In this document: in pieces, positions 6,524-59,558 of the stretch
Numbering within the stretch: the stretch's first letter is position 1
Layout: each line of letters starts with the position of its first letter
Translations under genes and position numbers: made by a program
Assembly (NCBI GenBank): GCA_016204605.1
Contig: JACQKK010000010.1
Span: 77,549 to 141,548 of the forward strand
DNA from: Candidatus Lambdaproteobacteria bacterium
GTDB lineage: Bacteria; SAR324; JACQKK01
Reading direction: 5' to 3'
Length of the DNA stretch: 64,000 nt
Notes under the pieces: generated by a model
What the model was told of the DNA's origin: nothing
Database searches by the model: none
What the model saw: the letters and a program-made list of their open reading frames with translations, nothing else

Positions 6524-7062
6524 GCACCGCCGTGATCTCCCTGCGCTACGCGCGGGCGCTGATGAACCTCGCCGCCAAGGCCGGCCAGGTGGATGCCGTG
6601 GGCCGGGGGCTCGATGACCTGGCCGGCGCGCTGGAGTCCTCCCCCGCCCTGACCGGACTGCTCACCGAACCGCGGGTGTCGCACGCCCAGAAGAACGAGG
6701 TGCTGGGCCAACTGCTGCACCGCTTGCAGGCGCCGGCGCTGGTGACCACGTTTGTGCGCTTCGTCGCCCAGCAGCGGCGCACCCCGCTGCTGGCCGAAAT
6801 CGGCGCGCTGTACCGCCGGCTGGCCGATGAGCGCCAGGGGCGCGCCCAGGCCGAGGTGACGGTGGCGGAGCCCCTCGCGGCCGAGCAGCAGGAGGATCTG
6901 CGCCGGCGGATCGAGGCGCTGACCGGCAAGACCATCACGCTGCACGTACAGGTGGATCCCGCGATCCTGGGCGGCGTCGTCACCCGCATCGGCAACACGG
7001 TGCGCGATGGCAGCCTGCGCAGCCAACTGAACCACGTCCGACAATCGATCAGGGAAGGATGA
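6520..7062 (+). CDS. atpH: F-type ATP synthase subunit delta (OSCP)
   Basis: The ATG overlaps the atpF stop (ATGA). The product begins [14 protein letters not shown] and ends with a [23 protein letters not shown]-like C-terminus. Confidence 0.8.
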
Positions 7063-7069
7063 GTCCGCG

Positions 7070-8581
<1,512 letters not shown>

Positions 8582-51875: not shown

Positions 51876-52601
51876 GTGTTTCCGGACGTGATGCGCTATA
51901 GAGCACCGGACTCCGAAGCGAGCGGAAATTCAAGGCAGAAGACTACCAGCGCAGGACTACACGTGGCGGGCTACCATATTGAACTCGAAGGTCAGGCTCT
52001 CGTTCTACTGGGGAAATTCAATCCGGGCATTATTCAACCGGCTTGGCTAGCCCACCAGGGACTCATCCGCCCTGAAGAGTCAGACAGCGCAAAGATTGAT
52101 ATCATTCGCTCTGAAATCTCGCTGTTCTCGATTGGTTCACTTAAACTGCTAACGCAGCCGGAAAAATTCCAAATTGAGACCGTCGCAGTTGAAGAGAGTC
52201 CTACGATCAAGGACCTTGCGCTTGGCATATTTACAGTGCTTGAGCATACCCCATTGTCAGCACTCGGGATTAATCGAGATGTCCATTTCAAAGTTGAATC
52301 GACCGACGTGTGGCATGCCGTTGGTCATCGACTTGTACCTAAGGATGTTTGGAAATCAATCATGGAAGAGCCAGGCACGAGATCTGTCATCGTAAGATCA
52401 AACAGACCAACCAAGGAGGGGCGATTGACGGTAAGAGTCGAACCGTCTGCGCGGACACAACCTGGCATCTATGTAGGAACAAACCTGCATTTCAACCTTG
52501 AACGACCCCAAATACTTCAAGTATTGGATAAAATGTGGGAGCAATCGCAGATCAACGCGCGAAAAGCAGCCGAGACGATTCTCGAATATTGCACAGGATG
52601 A
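51876..52601 (+). CDS. Hypothetical protein (241 aa), gene 1 of a low-GC island
   Basis: GC is ~48-50% against the ~70% background. I recognise no family. The start could be a few codons downstream (MRYRAP). Confidence 0.5.
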   Translation: MFPDVMRYRAPDSEASGNSRQKTTSAGLHVAGYHIELEGQALVLLGKFNPGIIQPAWLAHQGLIRPEESDSAKIDIIRSEISLFSIGSLKLLTQPEKFQIETVAVEESPTIKDLALGIFTVLEHTPLSALGINRDVHFKVESTDVWHAVGHRLVPKDVWKSIMEEPGTRSVIVRSNRPTKEGRLTVRVEPSARTQPGIYVGTNLHFNLERPQILQVLDKMWEQSQINARKAAETILEYCTG

Positions 52602-52608
52602 CTAGGAA

Positions 52609-53250
52609 ATGCTTACACCAAAGGAGTTCAAAGTTTGGCAGCCTCCTCCATTCGATGAGGCGGATCTCACTGCAACATTCGATGAGGCGGATCTCACTGC
52701 AAACAGAGATCGATCCTTACCGGGGGGCGGTACAAGTCGGTCCCTTCCACCTACCCTTGTTCCCCAATCTCGCACAATCCCCGACCAGTCGACTGCCACT
52801 CTGAGACCAGAAGAAGCGCAATCCGAGAGAATGAGTAGGCCGGCTGAAAAGCAGGTGCACGAGGTTCCATTTGTCGTCCCGCAACAAGGGACTATTACCC
52901 ATCGAACGCAGCTCTTGGAACAATGGGAAGGGACTGTTCAGACGATTTCCCAGAAGAAGTTCGTCGCGGTGCTAAGGTCAATGCTTTCGGCAGAACGAAC
53001 TGAAGAGTCGGCAACCTTCGAAATCGATTCGGTACCTGATGCCGACCTTTCGCTTGTACAGCCCGGGGCCGTATTCTATTGGAGTGTCGGCTACAGGAAC
53101 GAGCTAAGCGGGCAGAAGGTGCTAATGAGCGTTGTCAGATTCCGAAGGCTGCCCGCATGGTCGAAGCGCGATATTGAACGCGCAAGAAACACAGCGGAGA
53201 AATTCTCGGTATTTTTCGATGATCAACATTCGGAATCGGCCAGCGGCTGA
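52609..53250 (+). CDS. Hypothetical protein (213 aa), gene 2 of the low-GC island, with an internal 24-bp tandem duplication
   Basis: GC is low. FDEADLTA is repeated twice, encoded by a perfect 24-bp tandem repeat. I recognise no family. Confidence 0.45.
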   Translation: MLTPKEFKVWQPPPFDEADLTATFDEADLTANRDRSLPGGGTSRSLPPTLVPQSRTIPDQSTATLRPEEAQSERMSRPAEKQVHEVPFVVPQQGTITHRTQLLEQWEGTVQTISQKKFVAVLRSMLSAERTEESATFEIDSVPDADLSLVQPGAVFYWSVGYRNELSGQKVLMSVVRFRRLPAWSKRDIERARNTAEKFSVFFDDQHSESASG

Positions 53251-54310
53251 CGAGTTTGAGTTGTCGCTATTTGGTCCAGGGGTTGGCGAATGTGTAGTTG
53301 TGCACCTAGGACAAGGCGAGTGGCTTGTTGTTGATTCCTGTATCGATCGTGAAACGCGGAAACCCGTAGCCCTAGACTACTTCGACAAACTAGGTCTGAA
53401 TCCGGCTGAAGCCGTGCGACTGGTCATCGTGACTCACTGGCACGACGACCACATTGGTGGAGCATCGGCCGTAGCCAAAGCCGCAACCCGGGCCGACATC
53501 GTCTGTTCCGCTGCGCTCAACTGTAAGGAATTTCAGACGGTGCTAGGCGTTACGGCCGTGCCGTACATGCGGGGTGCCGGCGTCGATGAGATGACGCAGA
53601 TCTTCGAGCTTCTACTTGATCGAAGGAGTAGTAACCGATTGGATATTACCCCAGTCTGGGCGAAAGCACACACTCGACTGTATCAAACCGTTGCCGGAAG
53701 CGTTGAGGCTCTGAGCCCGTCTGACGCAACCTTCTCTCGCTTTCTTCAGGAGATTGCGAGTCTGCTGCCCGGCGTGGGAGCAACTGCACGCCGAGCAGTA
53801 AAGAACACACCCAATGAAACTGCGATTGCCATCTGGATTGAGGCGGGCGAAATCCGGGCGTTATTGGGCTCTGACTTGGAAAAGGGTGATACCGGAGTCA
53901 CCGGTTGGCAGGCCGTCGTCAATTCAACTCGCCGGCCACAAGGGAGAGCCAGACTCTTGAAAGTCGCCCATCATGGCTCTGACGGAGCAGATGAGCCGCG
54001 TGTGTGGAGCGACATGCTGGAACCACAGCCTCTGGCTGTCCTGACGCCATTTCGGCGAAGTTGGTTGCCCCGCGAAACAGACCTAGAACGCATTGCATCA
54101 CAAGCGGGGCAGGCATTTTGCACTGCGCTCCCGCGACCTACTCGCCCAGCCCGCCGCGCGCCAACTGTTGAAAAGCTAGTCCGTCGTGTTGCGCCCGATT
54201 TGCGCGAAGTTGTGGGTCCGATGGGACATGTCCGGATTCGGATCAAGCGGGGTGCGTCGACGCCCTCCATTGAACGGCGCGGCCCGGCATTTCAGTTGAG
54301 ACACCCGTAG
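53219..54310 (+). CDS. ComEC/Rec2-related metallo-beta-lactamase-fold hydrolase (COG2333-like), gene 3 of the low-GC island
   Basis: THWHDDHIGGA is the HxHxDH motif. The downstream KVAHHGSDGADE is the ComEC-type MBL signature. GC is low. The start could be 53132 or 53219. Confidence 0.6.
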   Translation: MINIRNRPAADEFELSLFGPGVGECVVVHLGQGEWLVVDSCIDRETRKPVALDYFDKLGLNPAEAVRLVIVTHWHDDHIGGASAVAKAATRADIVCSAALNCKEFQTVLGVTAVPYMRGAGVDEMTQIFELLLDRRSSNRLDITPVWAKAHTRLYQTVAGSVEALSPSDATFSRFLQEIASLLPGVGATARRAVKNTPNETAIAIWIEAGEIRALLGSDLEKGDTGVTGWQAVVNSTRRPQGRARLLKVAHHGSDGADEPRVWSDMLEPQPLAVLTPFRRSWLPRETDLERIASQAGQAFCTALPRPTRPARRAPTVEKLVRRVAPDLREVVGPMGHVRIRIKRGASTPSIERRGPAFQLRHP

Positions 54311-55837: not shown

Positions 55838-56158
55838 CTACAGGGCCTGGTCCACCATCGCCCGCACCTTGCGCGGGTCGTTGCCGATGGTGACGTTCAC
55901 CTGCTGGCCATCCTTGAACAGCATCACGGTCGGGATGCCGCGGATGCCGAGCTTGCCGGGGATGTTGGGGTTGGCGTCGATATCCACCTTGGCCACGCGC
56001 ACCTTGCCGGCATAGTCTTCGGCGATCTTGTCGATGTGCGGCCCGAGCGCGAGGCACGGCGCGCACCATTCCGCCCAGAAATCCACCAGCGTCAGCCCCT
56101 CGGCCACGCCGGAATCGAAATCCTGCTCCGAAAGATGGATCACCTTCTCGTTCGCCAT
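55838..56158 (-). CDS. trxA: Thioredoxin
   Basis: 106 aa from MANEKVIHLS with a WAEWCAPC active site. Confidence 0.9.
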   Translation of the reverse strand: MANEKVIHLSEQDFDSGVAEGLTLVDFWAEWCAPCLALGPHIDKIAEDYAGKVRVAKVDIDANPNIPGKLGIRGIPTVMLFKDGQQVNVTIGNDPRKVRAMVDQAL

Positions 56159-56426
56159 GACTCCCCTTGCCCGGTTCCCCGGGTCTGTTGGCCGCTGCGG
56201 TGTGTGCGCCGCCGGTGTGTGCACTGGGCCGATGTGTGCGCTGGGCCGCCCGCGCAGGCGGCCCGTGCTTGTGCTCACCCGGCGGACGCCGTATGGTGGC
56301 GCCAGTCGCCACTACGGGTGGCGCCCGCTCCGCTCTCCCCCGGCGGGCGCACCCGGCACGGCTCGGTGCAGCGTCATTATAGCAATGGCCGGGGGCGAGG
56401 CAACCACAGGACAGGGGAGTGCCACC

Positions 56427-56723
56427 ATGGCAAGGACTGCCGCCAAGACCGTGCGCCGCGAGCGCGAGTACGCCATCCCGGGGAAATGCTCCCCCGGCAT
56501 GTTCCCGAGCGAGTACGCGGTGACCATCCAACTCGGCGATAAGGAGTTCTCGCTGTTCGCGGACCGCAGGGACGTCAAGCTGCTCGACGCCGAGACGGGG
56601 GAATGCCTGGTTCGAGTGCGCGTGTTCGACAAGAAGAAGCAGATCATCTCACTGCCGGGGGAGACGCTGGAGAATGGTCGTCAATTCGCCGTATACCCGA
56701 TAGACCAACTCCATGACCTATGA
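56427..56723 (+). CDS. Hypothetical small protein (98 aa) translationally coupled to the downstream dcd-like gene
   Basis: A GGGGAG ribosome-binding site precedes the ATG. The stop overlaps the next start (ATGA). I recognise no family. Confidence 0.4.
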   Translation: MARTAAKTVRREREYAIPGKCSPGMFPSEYAVTIQLGDKEFSLFADRRDVKLLDAETGECLVRVRVFDKKKQIISLPGETLENGRQFAVYPIDQLHDL

Positions 56724-57301
56724 TTCTAAGCAATTCCGAAATTCTACGTGCAATATCGAGAGGTGAATTGGCGATCGGCGAGTTACGCGGCGATGAAGAT
56801 CCGTCTCGATCGCCCTTTAACACCTGCTCTGTGGATCTCCGGCTTGCAGATATAGTGGTGGAACCCAAAGACGCCATATCCTCCGTGGATTTCTTTCGAG
56901 GACAAGGCAAAATTTCGGACTACCTTGCTGATAACTCTAAATCGTATCGTATTCATCCCAATCAGTCTTATACCCTATCTCCTGGCGGTTTCGTACTCGC
57001 AAAAACGGAAGAAAGAGTGCAATTTCCTGTAGCAAAGTCCAGATCCAGGCGCACATTTGGCGGTCGGGTAGAAGGCCGCAGCAGCATCGCACGATGCGGG
57101 GTGTTGGTTCATTGCACCGCGCCCACGATTCACGCCAATTTCGAGGGAACCATCACGTTGGAGCTCGTCAATCTCGGCAAATGGAATTTCCTGCTGTACC
57201 CCGGCATGTTAATTTGTCAACTCATGGTCGAGCATGTCCACGGCCGAGTCATTCCCACGCCCACACAGTTCATCGGGCAAGACAAGCCCTTCGGCCGCTG
57301 A
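56720..57301 (+). CDS. dcd: dCTP deaminase-family (dUTPase-fold) protein, low-GC
   Basis: 193 aa. GRSSIARCGVLVHCTAPTIHANFEGTITLELVNLGKWNFLLYPGMLICQLMVE aligns closely with the E. coli Dcd core (GRSSLARLGLMVHVTA..IVLEFYN.G..PL.L.PGM.I). GC is ~50%. Confidence 0.8.
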   Translation: MILSNSEILRAISRGELAIGELRGDEDPSRSPFNTCSVDLRLADIVVEPKDAISSVDFFRGQGKISDYLADNSKSYRIHPNQSYTLSPGGFVLAKTEERVQFPVAKSRSRRTFGGRVEGRSSIARCGVLVHCTAPTIHANFEGTITLELVNLGKWNFLLYPGMLICQLMVEHVHGRVIPTPTQFIGQDKPFGR

Positions 57302-57307
57302 ATCTCC

Positions 57308-58069
57308 ATGCCCCCACGCCCGTTGACGATCCACCCCGTGACCGGCCTGCCCGAGTTCATGCCGGGCGATGACCTGGCGGCCGCCTTCTGGGGCGCCGTG
57401 CAGGCGCAGGGGTTGGCCCTGGCCGAAGGCGACGTGGTCGTCGTGGCGCAGAAGGCAGTCTCGAAGTGCGAAGGCTCGCGCATGGCGCTGAGCGCCATCG
57501 ACCCCTCGCCCTTCGCGCGCTATTGGGCCGAGAAGTGGGGCAAGGACCCGCGCCAGGTGGAGATCGTGCTCCGGGAGAGCCGGCGCATCGTCAGGATGGA
57601 GCGCGGGCTGATCATCGCCGAGACCCGCCACGGCTACGTCTGCGCCAACGCGGGCGTGGACCTCTCCAACGCCGGCACGGCGGAGGGGGTGGCGATCCTG
57701 CTGCCGGAGGACCCGGACCGCTCGGCCCGCACGCTGCGGGAGCGCATCCGCGATCTCTCCGGGCGCTCGGTGGCGGTGATCGTGGCCGATACTTTCGGGC
57801 GCCCCTGGCGGAGCGGGCTGGTGCAGGTCGCCCTCGGCGCGGCCGGGCTGCTGCCCGTGCGCGACTACCGCGGCAAGACCGATGCCGACGGCCGCGAGCT
57901 GAAGAGCACCGAGATCGCCCTGGCCGACGAGCTGGCCTCAGCCGCGGACCTCGTCTGCGGCAAGGTGCACCGCGTCCCCATCGCCGTGATCCAGGGCTAC
58001 GAGGCCCCCCCCGGCGAGGCCGACGGCCGCGCCCTGATCCGCCCCCCGGAGATGGACCTGTTCAGGTAG
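57308..58069 (+). CDS. cofE: Coenzyme F420-0:L-glutamate ligase
   Basis: 253 aa. The CofE family pattern (..VVVAQKAVSKCEGS...GYVCANAGVD.SN..) is present. GC is native. Confidence 0.8.
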   Translation: MPPRPLTIHPVTGLPEFMPGDDLAAAFWGAVQAQGLALAEGDVVVVAQKAVSKCEGSRMALSAIDPSPFARYWAEKWGKDPRQVEIVLRESRRIVRMERGLIIAETRHGYVCANAGVDLSNAGTAEGVAILLPEDPDRSARTLRERIRDLSGRSVAVIVADTFGRPWRSGLVQVALGAAGLLPVRDYRGKTDADGRELKSTEIALADELASAADLVCGKVHRVPIAVIQGYEAPPGEADGRALIRPPEMDLFR

Positions 58070-58106: not shown

Positions 58107-59558
58107 TCAAATGTTTTCCATAATCTGCGCTTGCCTACGAATTAAGTTCCTTCCAAGAATATAACAGTAAACTGCGGCCTCTTGAAATTCGATTCTCAGA
58201 CCCTCGACTTCGTGTTCCCCATGTACCGATTTTGTCGTAACTTTCGCATGATCCAGGCCAACCCGTGCGCAGAAAGCAATGAGACTCTTCAAGTCTTTTG
58301 TGTTGTCAAAATATCGGTCGCTCCATTTCACTTCAACACACCATCTCACTTCATTACCTTTTTCCAGATCAACAATGTCAACTTCGCCTTCCGATCCTCC
58401 CTTCTTCCAACGAGCATAGTGAATATTATTCATGAAGTTCCCCGCATGAATCCACTGACAAAATATTGCAGTTTCGACTAAGCTCCCAATTTCATCTTCG
58501 ATCTTGACTAGTCCAAATAGGGCTGCGTACATTGATGGATTTGTTAGATAGACTTTGAAGAAATTGATCTTGTTAAATGTTTTGCCATTGTTATCAACTC
58601 TTTTCACAGTCTTGATGAGAAATGCCGCTTCAAGGTATTCGATATATCGCTTGATCGTATTCTTAGACAGCCCTGAAGCTACACTTAAATTTTCAAACGT
58701 AATCTCATTTCCAGTCTGGTACGCGAGGACATAGAATAGACGAGTAAGTTCTTGTACATCATTGATACCATAAAGAGATGGCAAGTCTCGCAGCAAGACC
58801 TTGTCGATGATGTCGCTACGGATGAACCTTTCAGGATTCTTCTGGATAGCTTCACTGAATACGGATTCTGGGAAGCCGCCAAAATTAATGTAACGAATGA
58901 ACTCTCGATTGAGACTCGCAATATCTTTGACTTCAATCCGCCCATGTTTCTTAATTGAAACGAAGTACCTTTCGTGTAAATTTTGCAGGTCTAAAAATTC
59001 ATAGAATGTGAGAGGAGGTAACATGAAGTCTGTAAATCTGCCGGCACCAGACTCCAAACTCTTCATTCTAAGGGCAGCAGCTGCGGAACCCGAAGCAATG
59101 AACTTGGTATGCTTCTCAGTATCCACAAGATGTTTCAGATGTACTTCCCAACCGTTCAAATATTGGATTTCATCGAAAATGACTATGCATCCATTCGTCT
59201 TGTCCTTGTCGGTCACTTCTTTGTAGAGTTTCACCAATTCTTCGAGGCGGAGGCCTTGAAATAGCGGTGTTTCTAAAGGCAAGTAAACAATGTCATGAGG
59301 CTGTTTCCCGGAGTCAATCAGCTTTTGTATGAAATGATGAAGCATTACCGTCTTGCCAACGCGCCTAGGTCCCATAAGGACAACGGCCCGATTGGGTGTA
59401 GTACTGCTGCCAAGAGGGTAGAATAGATCGAAATATCGCCTTTGCTTGTACTTGCGGAGTTCTGGATCGATTGAGGACGTTTGCCAGTGGGGATTCAGAT
59501 CGCGCAGTTTTTTGTGTAGCGTGTCTTGGGGAATTTCTCGGATCACGATACTCTCCAA
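58107..59558 (-). CDS. AAA+ superfamily ATPase of the COG1373 / AAA_14+DUF4143 family, low-GC
   Basis: 483 aa. The Walker A is LMGPRRVGKT and the Walker B region is CIVIFDEIQ. The C-terminal region resembles DUF4143. GC is ~40%. Confidence 0.75.
   Translation of the reverse strand: MESIVIREIPQDTLHKKLRDLNPHWQTSSIDPELRKYKQRRYFDLFYPLGSSTTPNRAVVLMGPRRVGKTVMLHHFIQKLIDSGKQPHDIVYLPLETPLFQGLRLEELVKLYKEVTDKDKTNGCIVIFDEIQYLNGWEVHLKHLVDTEKHTKFIASGSAAAALRMKSLESGAGRFTDFMLPPLTFYEFLDLQNLHERYFVSIKKHGRIEVKDIASLNREFIRYINFGGFPESVFSEAIQKNPERFIRSDIIDKVLLRDLPSLYGINDVQELTRLFYVLAYQTGNEITFENLSVASGLSKNTIKRYIEYLEAAFLIKTVKRVDNNGKTFNKINFFKVYLTNPSMYAALFGLVKIEDEIGSLVETAIFCQWIHAGNFMNNIHYARWKKGGSEGEVDIVDLEKGNEVRWCVEVKWSDRYFDNTKDLKSLIAFCARVGLDHAKVTTKSVHGEHEVEGLRIEFQEAAVYCYILGRNLIRRQAQIMENI

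Follow-up and report, generated by a model that had tools for sequence, protein, structure and literature searches.

A conserved, horizontally mobile two-gene cassette pairs a divergent Dcd-fold enzyme with a small, predicted all-beta protein

INTRODUCTION

Why would a gene that resembles a housekeeping dCTP deaminase (Dcd) gene overlap the stop codon of a small open reading frame (ORF), and why would its GC content lie so far below that of the gene that follows? The question arises in a 64,000-nucleotide stretch of contig JACQKK010000010.1 (positions 77,549 to 141,548; assembly GCA_016204605.1) from a Candidatus Lambdaproteobacteria bacterium of the SAR324 lineage. We call this whole stretch the window; its GC content is 0.68. 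The two genes, which we call ORF-A and ORF-B, lie as follows:

56427-56723, + strand: ORF-A, the 98-aa partner protein (start and stop read from the sequence)
56720-57301, + strand: ORF-B, a 193-aa enzyme of Dcd/dUTPase fold that belongs to a distinct subfamily
56720-56723, + strand: ATGA, the overlap of the ORF-A stop and the ORF-B start (read from the sequence)

An initial annotation of the window considered ORF-B to be a stand-alone, horizontally acquired member of the dCTP deaminase family coupled to a small ORF, and noted that such enzymes can serve as nucleotide-depletion effectors against phages. We report here that ORF-A and ORF-B form a conserved, horizontally mobile two-gene cassette that is present in hundreds of unrelated bacteria. 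The anatomy and distribution of this cassette are solid and unreported; as to function, we infer a module that may target the nucleotide pool and that would be built from unrelated parts.

RESULTS

The enzyme gene is one half of a conserved pair

A scan of species-representative genomes (one genome per species) returned 295 stretches matching ORF-B. An iterative hidden Markov model (HMM) search covered the 80 best loci together with those inspected earlier; the counts on pairing refer to 80 non-redundant loci, which span more than 15 phyla. In 75 of these, a partner gene lies directly upstream of the enzyme gene and in the same direction. Spacing ranges from -8 to +30 nt in 73 of the 75 cassettes, with a 4-nt overlap in 42 and a 1-nt overlap in four. 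At the locus in the window, the ATGA overlap implies translational coupling of ORF-A and ORF-B. Since the pairwise distances among partners correlate with those among enzymes (r = 0.70, a value that none of 2000 permutations reached), the two genes travel and diverge together.

These results bear out the coupling to a small ORF that had been suspected at this locus, and they show the partner to be conserved, where the initial annotation had allowed that it might not be. The description of the enzyme as stand-alone does not hold, as its gene is half of an obligate-looking pair. ORF-A fits the part of a cognate partner of ORF-B, to judge from this pattern of co-occurrence. No third gene is conserved beside the pair: 285 flanking ORFs matched 157 and 165 Pfam families in two batches, and no single family accounted for more than four ORFs in either batch.

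The partner belongs to a small, predicted all-beta family

In a word-index homologue search, ORF-A alone matched only itself. The idea that it is an orphan was nonetheless overturned by the ORFs found upstream of ORF-B homologues and by iterative HMM search. At the first four loci inspected, an ORF of 88-94 aa lies directly 5′ of the enzyme gene, and these ORFs have the motifs "PGMFSNE", "SLFAD", and "LP.ETLE.G.RW" in common with ORF-A. Across the partner family G24, F26, and E29 ("GMFxxE") are invariant and L76-P77 is near-invariant. A search of a 50%-identity library with the partner profile found 1,363 clusters at E ≤ 1e-3, nearly all of them stand-alone proteins of 78-125 aa; one is a tandem duplication and one has a C-terminal helical extension.

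What does this family look like? The AlphaFold2 (AF2) model of ORF-A (predicted local distance difference test score [pLDDT] 74.7) has seven strands and is all-beta. The initial annotation had proposed a profile or structure search of the partner, and neither found a significant match: in Foldseek searches of the PDB and BFVD with the model, the best E value was 0.12 (template modeling score [TM] ∼0.35), and a sequence-profile search of the PDB gave a chance match only (E = 0.94). The best structural matches, all non-significant, were OB folds of tRNA- and ssDNA-binding proteins. ORF-A had no match in Pfam, NCBIfam, PADLOC, or PHROGs, and 44 partner homologues compared with Pfam gave only noise. 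Taking the predicted model at face value, the ORF-A family is an undescribed family of small all-beta proteins.

The enzyme keeps the deaminase residues and has an altered motif III

ORF-B matches the Pfam DCD profile PF22769 with E = 8e-27 and 94.6 bits (cut-off 27), and its Pfam matches are limited to DCD and dUTPase. With the dCTP deaminase equivalog model TIGR02274 it scores 91.9 bits, just under the cut-off of 92.8. Its AF2 model (pLDDT 92.8) matches 1XS1, 2V9X, and 4A6A in Foldseek with E ∼1e-14 and TM 0.77-0.80, and ORF-B superposes on E. coli Dcd and on the M. tuberculosis Dcd:dUTPase at 26-29% identity. Homologues that are 40-55% identical number 217 at E ≤ 1e-5. The residues expected to carry out catalysis fall within one block:

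57062-57166, + strand: catalytic block GRVEGRSSIARCGVLVHCTAPTIHANFEGTITLEL, containing S121, R125, E148, and H138 (assigned by alignment)

S121, R125, and E148 align with S111, R115, and E138 of E. coli Dcd and are invariant in 26 family members. Motif III of the family reads TAPTIHAGF, in which an invariant His138 replaces an aspartate (Asp128 of E. coli Dcd, in "IDPG"); E. coli Dcd and all 30 phage Dcds that we compared have a TAG[FY]IDPGF-type motif with the aspartate. We take the "IDPG" aspartate of Dcd and Dcd:dut enzymes to be the motif-III residue of the dUTPase superfamily. The catalytic water of trimeric dUTPases is coordinated by this aspartate, and in M. tuberculosis Dut the substitution D83N lowers catalytic efficiency to 0.0002 of wild type (PMC5519681). 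Since His138 replaces the motif-III aspartate, canonical dUTP hydrolysis is not expected of ORF-B, and the family would be predicted to deaminate without it.

It is also possible that the change from aspartate to histidine alters the substrate or the chemistry, such that the enzyme acts on CTP, 5-methyl- or 5-hydroxymethyl-dCTP, or another nucleotide, with the partner as a specificity or sensor subunit and possibly an OB-like nucleic-acid binder. The invariant His138 stands at a motif that contacts the sugar and the water and that has aspartate in E. coli Dcd and the 30 phage Dcds, the TIGR02274 score falls just short of the equivalog cut-off, and the weak best structural matches of the partner are OB folds. 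However, those OB-fold matches are non-significant (E ≥ 0.12, TM ∼0.35), the pyrimidine-pocket and triphosphate-lid motifs are otherwise Dcd-like, and the neighborhoods contain no pointers to modified-nucleotide pathways. We regard a change of substrate as improbable.

In a neighbor-joining tree the family forms a clade apart from the canonical Dcds. Phyla are intermixed within the clade, with Blastocatellia beside Alphaproteobacteria and Bacteroidales beside Dehalococcoidales, for example.

The cassette is mobile

In 74 of 85 loci, the GC content of the cassette lies more than 3 points below that of the flanking DNA (median, -8), and it is never more than 3 points above. As so many loci elsewhere have the same property, the low GC seen in the window is not a chance local dip. 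Mobile elements carry it as cargo in at least two instances. In a Burkholderia pseudomallei genome, the cassette resides in an island that also encodes an integrase and a replication protein of the Phage_GPA family. The protein is rare in this species (a cluster of four sequences on 3-4 contigs), and it has no match, even at E ≤ 1, to the solved Dcd of the genus, 4DHK. In a Verrucomicrobiales metagenome-assembled genome (MAG; CBDDIW01), the cassette is part of a repeat of at least 9.9 kb whose copies at three contig ends (L024, L026, and L027) are 100% identical; the repeat also encodes a DUF5906 protein and a primase-like protein with a DnaG-type zinc ribbon. It probably represents an integrative element present in several copies, at which the assembly breaks.

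A sister clade extends these observations. On a conjugative megaplasmid of Sinorhizobium garamanticum (NZ_CP120375.1; L248, 2737-3567), a divergent 79-aa partner ORF with the pattern "GTHPSE...LPRET..G.WRVW" precedes a 188-aa gene that is annotated dcd and has the TAPTIHAGF motif. Because this sister clade has the pair, the pairing must be older and broader than the family of 40-55% identity. The sister clade, with its histidine motif, is also found on one IMG/VR viral contig as a divergent cassette (L123).

Two origins for the family were considered and rejected. With the exception of L123, the best IMG/VR and INPHARED matches are ordinary Dcds with the aspartate motif, at most 38% identical, which speaks against a phage origin. 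As for plasmids, PLSDB contains no close member and only the Sinorhizobium sister clade, its remaining matches being ordinary Dcds that are at most 38% identical.

The cassette was inserted between trxA and cofE

How did the cassette come to lie where it does in this genome? The features that bear on this question are:

55838-56158, - strand: trxA (thioredoxin; Pfam Thioredoxin, E = 9e-27), the divergent native gene on the other flank of the insertion site, given for context
56159-56426, no strand: intergenic spacer from trxA to ORF-A, of native composition (GC 0.74)
56414-56419, + strand: Shine-Dalgarno-like GGGGAG, 7 nt 5′ of the ORF-A ATG (read directly)
57308-58069, + strand: cofE (F420-0:gamma-glutamyl ligase; TIGR01916, E = 2e-82), a native context gene outside the cassette

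In the closest relatives available (L168 and L169), whose cofE genes are 65-70% identical to this one, the gene order is truA(-), trxA(-), cofE(+), cofG(+), followed in L169, for which the stretch is long enough, by a Mur-ligase-like gene. The spacer between trxA and cofE is 220-300 nt in both relatives and contains neither ORF-A nor ORF-B. Because the relatives have trxA and cofE adjacent without the cassette, the comparison identifies the cassette in this genome as an insertion between the two genes. A native-GC spacer is retained 5′ of ORF-A, and the cassette ends directly before the start codon of cofE. No convincing direct or inverted repeats of the kind left by transposons or att sites were found around the cassette. 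The synteny check that had been suggested for trxA and cofE thus revealed an empty site in relatives; with the mixing of phyla in the tree and the generally low GC, this upholds the proposal of horizontal acquisition.

These data also bear on whether ORF-B could be, as the initial annotation had allowed, an ordinary housekeeping dcd that was laterally replaced, is of locally atypical composition, and lies downstream of an incidental ORF. The gene is intact and probably expressed together with cofE, and no other dcd or dut is present in the 64-kb window; the window, however, covers only a fraction of the MAG, so the absence of a second copy from it says little. Against such a replacement, the upstream ORF belongs to a conserved family and accompanies the enzyme in 75 of 80 loci, relatives lack the cassette at the trxA-cofE site, and the family, with its altered motif, branches apart from the canonical Dcds. 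We consider this explanation highly improbable for the locus. For the family as a whole it is unlikely, since the B. pseudomallei copy is rare, is found in an integrase island, and is unrelated to the Dcd of the genus.

Gene calls, composition, and expression

The positions of both ORFs, their ATGA overlap, the 6-nt gap to cofE, and the low GC relative to cofE, all given in the initial annotation, were confirmed. The cassette has locus tags HY423_01550 and HY423_01555 in the source MAG. In the NCBI annotation, ORF-B (HY423_01555) is a 177-aa "hypothetical protein" that starts at a TTG at codon 17, an internal start that conceals the ATGA overlap with ORF-A. Homologues that are 187-203 aa long can be aligned with ORF-B starting at residue 1, which favors the ATG at 56720, and with it the overlap, over the TTG.

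GC content is 0.515 for ORF-B, 0.61 for ORF-A, and 0.73 for cofE, and GC at third codon positions (GC3) is 0.55, 0.81-0.83, and 0.96, respectively, such that ORF-A deviates less than ORF-B. The gap in GC3 between the two cassette genes is large at this locus. Since the median difference between partner and enzyme is only +0.03 across 74 other loci, the asymmetry is specific to this locus, and a general difference in codon usage between partners and enzymes is ruled out. Possibilities for the asymmetry include differential amelioration, recombination, and selection for higher expression of the partner.

The cofE ATG at 57308 begins 6 nt past the stop codon of ORF-B. As a terminator scan found none between the two genes, the cassette and cofE are probably co-transcribed. 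A promoter for ORF-A, ORF-B, and cofE presumably sits in the 56159-56426 spacer; a consensus scan found no sigma-70-like promoter on the + strand upstream of ORF-A.

Other low-GC insertions nearby

The cassette has company. Between cofE and cofG lies a gene for a 483-aa ATPase (AAA_14 plus DUF4143; 58107-59558, - strand; GC 0.43) that matches the PADLOC candidate system PDC-S01 with E = 7e-58. In the relative L169, cofG directly follows cofE with no ATPase between them; in L172, a further relative, cofE is followed by an AAA_14 homologue. On the other side, a low-GC (0.54) island of three co-directional ORFs (51876-54310, + strand) adjoins truA. Two of these ORFs (241 and 213 aa) match no family. 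The third encodes a 392-aa protein of metallo-beta-lactamase fold (phrog_28593, E = 7e-44) with weak matches to the PADLOC models LmuA and RTasMBL, and the island is possibly another imported module of defense type. Thus, two other low-GC insertions, one of them the PDC-S01 ATPase, are located within 5 kb of the cassette, and island, cassette, and ATPase together make three foreign insertions in ∼8 kb of conserved housekeeping synteny.

DISCUSSION

If ORF-A and ORF-B are inherited as a unit, what might they do? Our favored reading, which we hold tentatively and which derives from sequence and predicted structure, is that the cassette is a module of toxin/inhibitor or abortive-infection type whose enzyme would convert dCTP to dUTP. 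In this scheme, ORF-B would be a cytosine-nucleotide deaminase of the homotrimeric Dcd fold that keeps the Ser/Arg/Glu machinery and that, with histidine in place of the motif-III aspartate, would turn dCTP into free dUTP and stop before dUMP. ORF-A, translationally coupled and made first, would bind ORF-B and hold the enzyme inactive, in the manner of a protein antitoxin or inhibitor. The trigger could be loss, titration, or degradation of the partner, for example upon loss of a plasmid or element or during phage-induced shut-off. The freed enzyme would then deplete dCTP and cause a massive build-up of dUTP, resulting in stalled replication and uracilated DNA in host and phage alike. In favor of this reading are the conserved pairing, the mobility, the retained deaminase residues with an altered motif III, the precedents of AvcID and Stl discussed below, and some of the contexts: defense genes adjoin certain cassettes, a Zeta_toxin gene is inserted near the cassette in the Planctomycetota nuo operon, and in the window the cassette has two low-GC insertions nearby, one of them the PDC-S01 ATPase. 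A broader form of the proposal is that the cassette represents a new and widespread family of protein-regulated nucleotide-pool toxins, in which a dUTP-releasing deaminase of dUTPase fold is silenced by a beta-protein of new fold and acts in toxin-antitoxin (TA) or abortive-infection systems through dCTP starvation and DNA uracilation. We put this forward with more reserve.

Several observations weigh against a toxin. The monofunctional Dcd of E. coli also releases dUTP, and does so harmlessly, so production of dUTP alone need not be toxic. Five of the 80 loci (L011, L019, L023, L032, and L051) contain the enzyme only, with catalytic motifs intact, and such solo copies are awkward for a strongly toxic enzyme. 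No DNA-binding antitoxin domain (HTH, RHH, AbrB, or Phd) is recognized in the partner, and no close members (≥40% identity) were found among PLSDB plasmids or INPHARED phages. The neighbors of the cassette are mostly housekeeping genes. In a Planctomycetota clade (L249-L254, cassette at ∼7001-7840), the cassette keeps a constant place in the Complex I operon, with nuoF on one side and nuoG on the other, which looks like long-term vertical retention and equally fits a useful metabolic role. Lastly, association with defense genes is modest. One cassette (L004) adjoins genes for Mrr, PLD, and a ParS-type antitoxin, and BstA, RmrA, PD-T4-6, PDC-S01, PDC-S24, and type I, II, and IIG restriction-modification systems are each defense neighbors at single loci; by a rough count, made without a background rate, a PADLOC model matches a gene no more than two positions away from the cassette at ∼20-25% of loci.

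Two of these contexts have further features. Among the enzyme-only loci, L019 and L023 resemble each other upstream of the enzyme gene (GAAAAGTCGAGC...), and another kind of regulator might be concealed there. In the Planctomycetota nuo operons, a Zeta_toxin/AAA_33 gene is also inserted between nuoE and nuoF, and the interval from nuoC to nuoD contains three Uma2 genes and one DUF4058 gene as further insertions; this essential operon appears to be a landing pad for selfish-looking genes.

Could the cassette instead be metabolic? One possibility is that ORF-B serves dTTP synthesis as an accessory or back-up dCTP deaminase, with the partner as a regulatory or stabilizing subunit and the whole as a mobile metabolic module. 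The intact deaminase residues and confidently predicted Dcd fold would be as expected, as would the mostly housekeeping neighbors, the stable retention in the Planctomycetota nuo operon, the solo enzyme copies with intact motifs, and the probable co-transcription with cofE in the window. However, canonical Dcds are not known to require a partner, and the invariant replacement of aspartate by histidine argues for an altered function. Moreover, the cassette behaves as an accessory element: its GC is low almost everywhere, its spread across phyla is patchy, it is carried as cargo of integrative elements, more distant copies of the sister clade are found on a megaplasmid, and the Burkholderia copy is rare and stands alongside the different, genus-level Dcd 4DHK. 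On balance, we view a metabolic module, the main alternative, as somewhat unlikely and continue to favor, with the reserve stated, a toxin or abortive-infection module.

How does the cassette compare with known systems? Canonical Dcds and bifunctional Dcd:dUTPases (1XS1; 2QLP/4A6A; PF22769, TIGR02274) have the same fold and similar length, and they have in common with ORF-B the Ser/Arg/Glu residues and a C-terminal tail rich in Gln and Gly. ORF-B differs from them in being only 26-30% identical, in having histidine for the motif-III aspartate, in being nearly always paired with a partner, and in being accessory and mobile; in comparison with the bifunctional enzymes, it is the aspartate position for dUTP hydrolysis that is histidine in ORF-B. 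The cassette resembles a type II TA system in that two small genes point in the same direction, overlap by 4 nt with the smaller gene leading, and are inherited as a unit, and also in its patchy distribution, carriage by mobile elements, and low GC. Unlike most of those systems, the cassette has a partner with no recognizable DNA-binding antitoxin domain and a putative toxin with the fold of a metabolic enzyme.

Two defense systems deaminate deoxycytidine nucleotides. The defensive dCTP deaminase described by Tal et al. is a 576-aa fusion, encoded by one gene, in which a kinase-like N-terminal domain is joined to a zinc-dependent cytosine deaminase. The predicted outcome, removal of dCTP by deamination, is alike, but ORF-B, a single domain of 193 aa (not >350 aa), is of dUTPase fold, which is unrelated, and comes with a protein partner. 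No PADLOC model matched ORF-B at E ≤ 0.1. The link to known nucleotide-depletion defense enzymes that the initial annotation had considered is therefore not supported, as the 576-aa kinase plus zinc deaminase is of unrelated fold, and the likeness to defensive "dCTP deaminases" is, to judge from the folds, a coincidence of names. The best functional analogy is AvcID of Vibrio cholerae, in which the deoxycytidine deaminase toxin AvcD and a labile antitoxin provide phage defense (PMC10511110). It too is a two-component system in which a deaminase is held off and deoxycytidine nucleotides are depleted upon phage infection (PMC10511110). However, AvcD is a deoxycytidylate deaminase of CDA fold with a P-loop domain and AvcI is an RNA antitoxin, whereas the cassette has a Dcd-fold enzyme and a partner that is a protein, conserved at the amino-acid level across phyla.

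There is precedent for a protein that silences enzymes of this fold. Stl, the SaPIbov1 repressor, binds and inhibits trimers of dUTPase fold (PMC5847570, PMC9927489; complex structures 7PWX and 8P8O). It is unrelated to the all-beta partner described here, being a helical repressor that binds DNA, and it does not share an operon with its target.

Our literature searches found no Dcd/dUTPase fold acting as a TA toxin and, among papers linking dCTP deaminases or dUTPase-like proteins to toxin-antitoxin systems or defense, no description of the two-gene cassette. In databases, the cassette proteins are named "dCTP deaminase" or "hypothetical protein" throughout.

Should the cassette prove to be a conflict system, it would represent a third independently evolved case in which deoxycytidine deamination has been weaponized, after the kinase-CDA dCTP deaminases and AvcID, and it would employ a housekeeping enzyme fold that annotation pipelines label "dCTP deaminase"; because of that label, defense-finding tools would overlook it. 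It would also supply a natural protein regulator for an enzyme of dUTPase fold, together with a defined Asp-to-His change in the active site. Finally, the ∼300 species-representative matches and the many metagenomic copies annotated dcd should not be assigned to the thymidylate pathway of their hosts without a check for the partner and for the TAPTIH motif.

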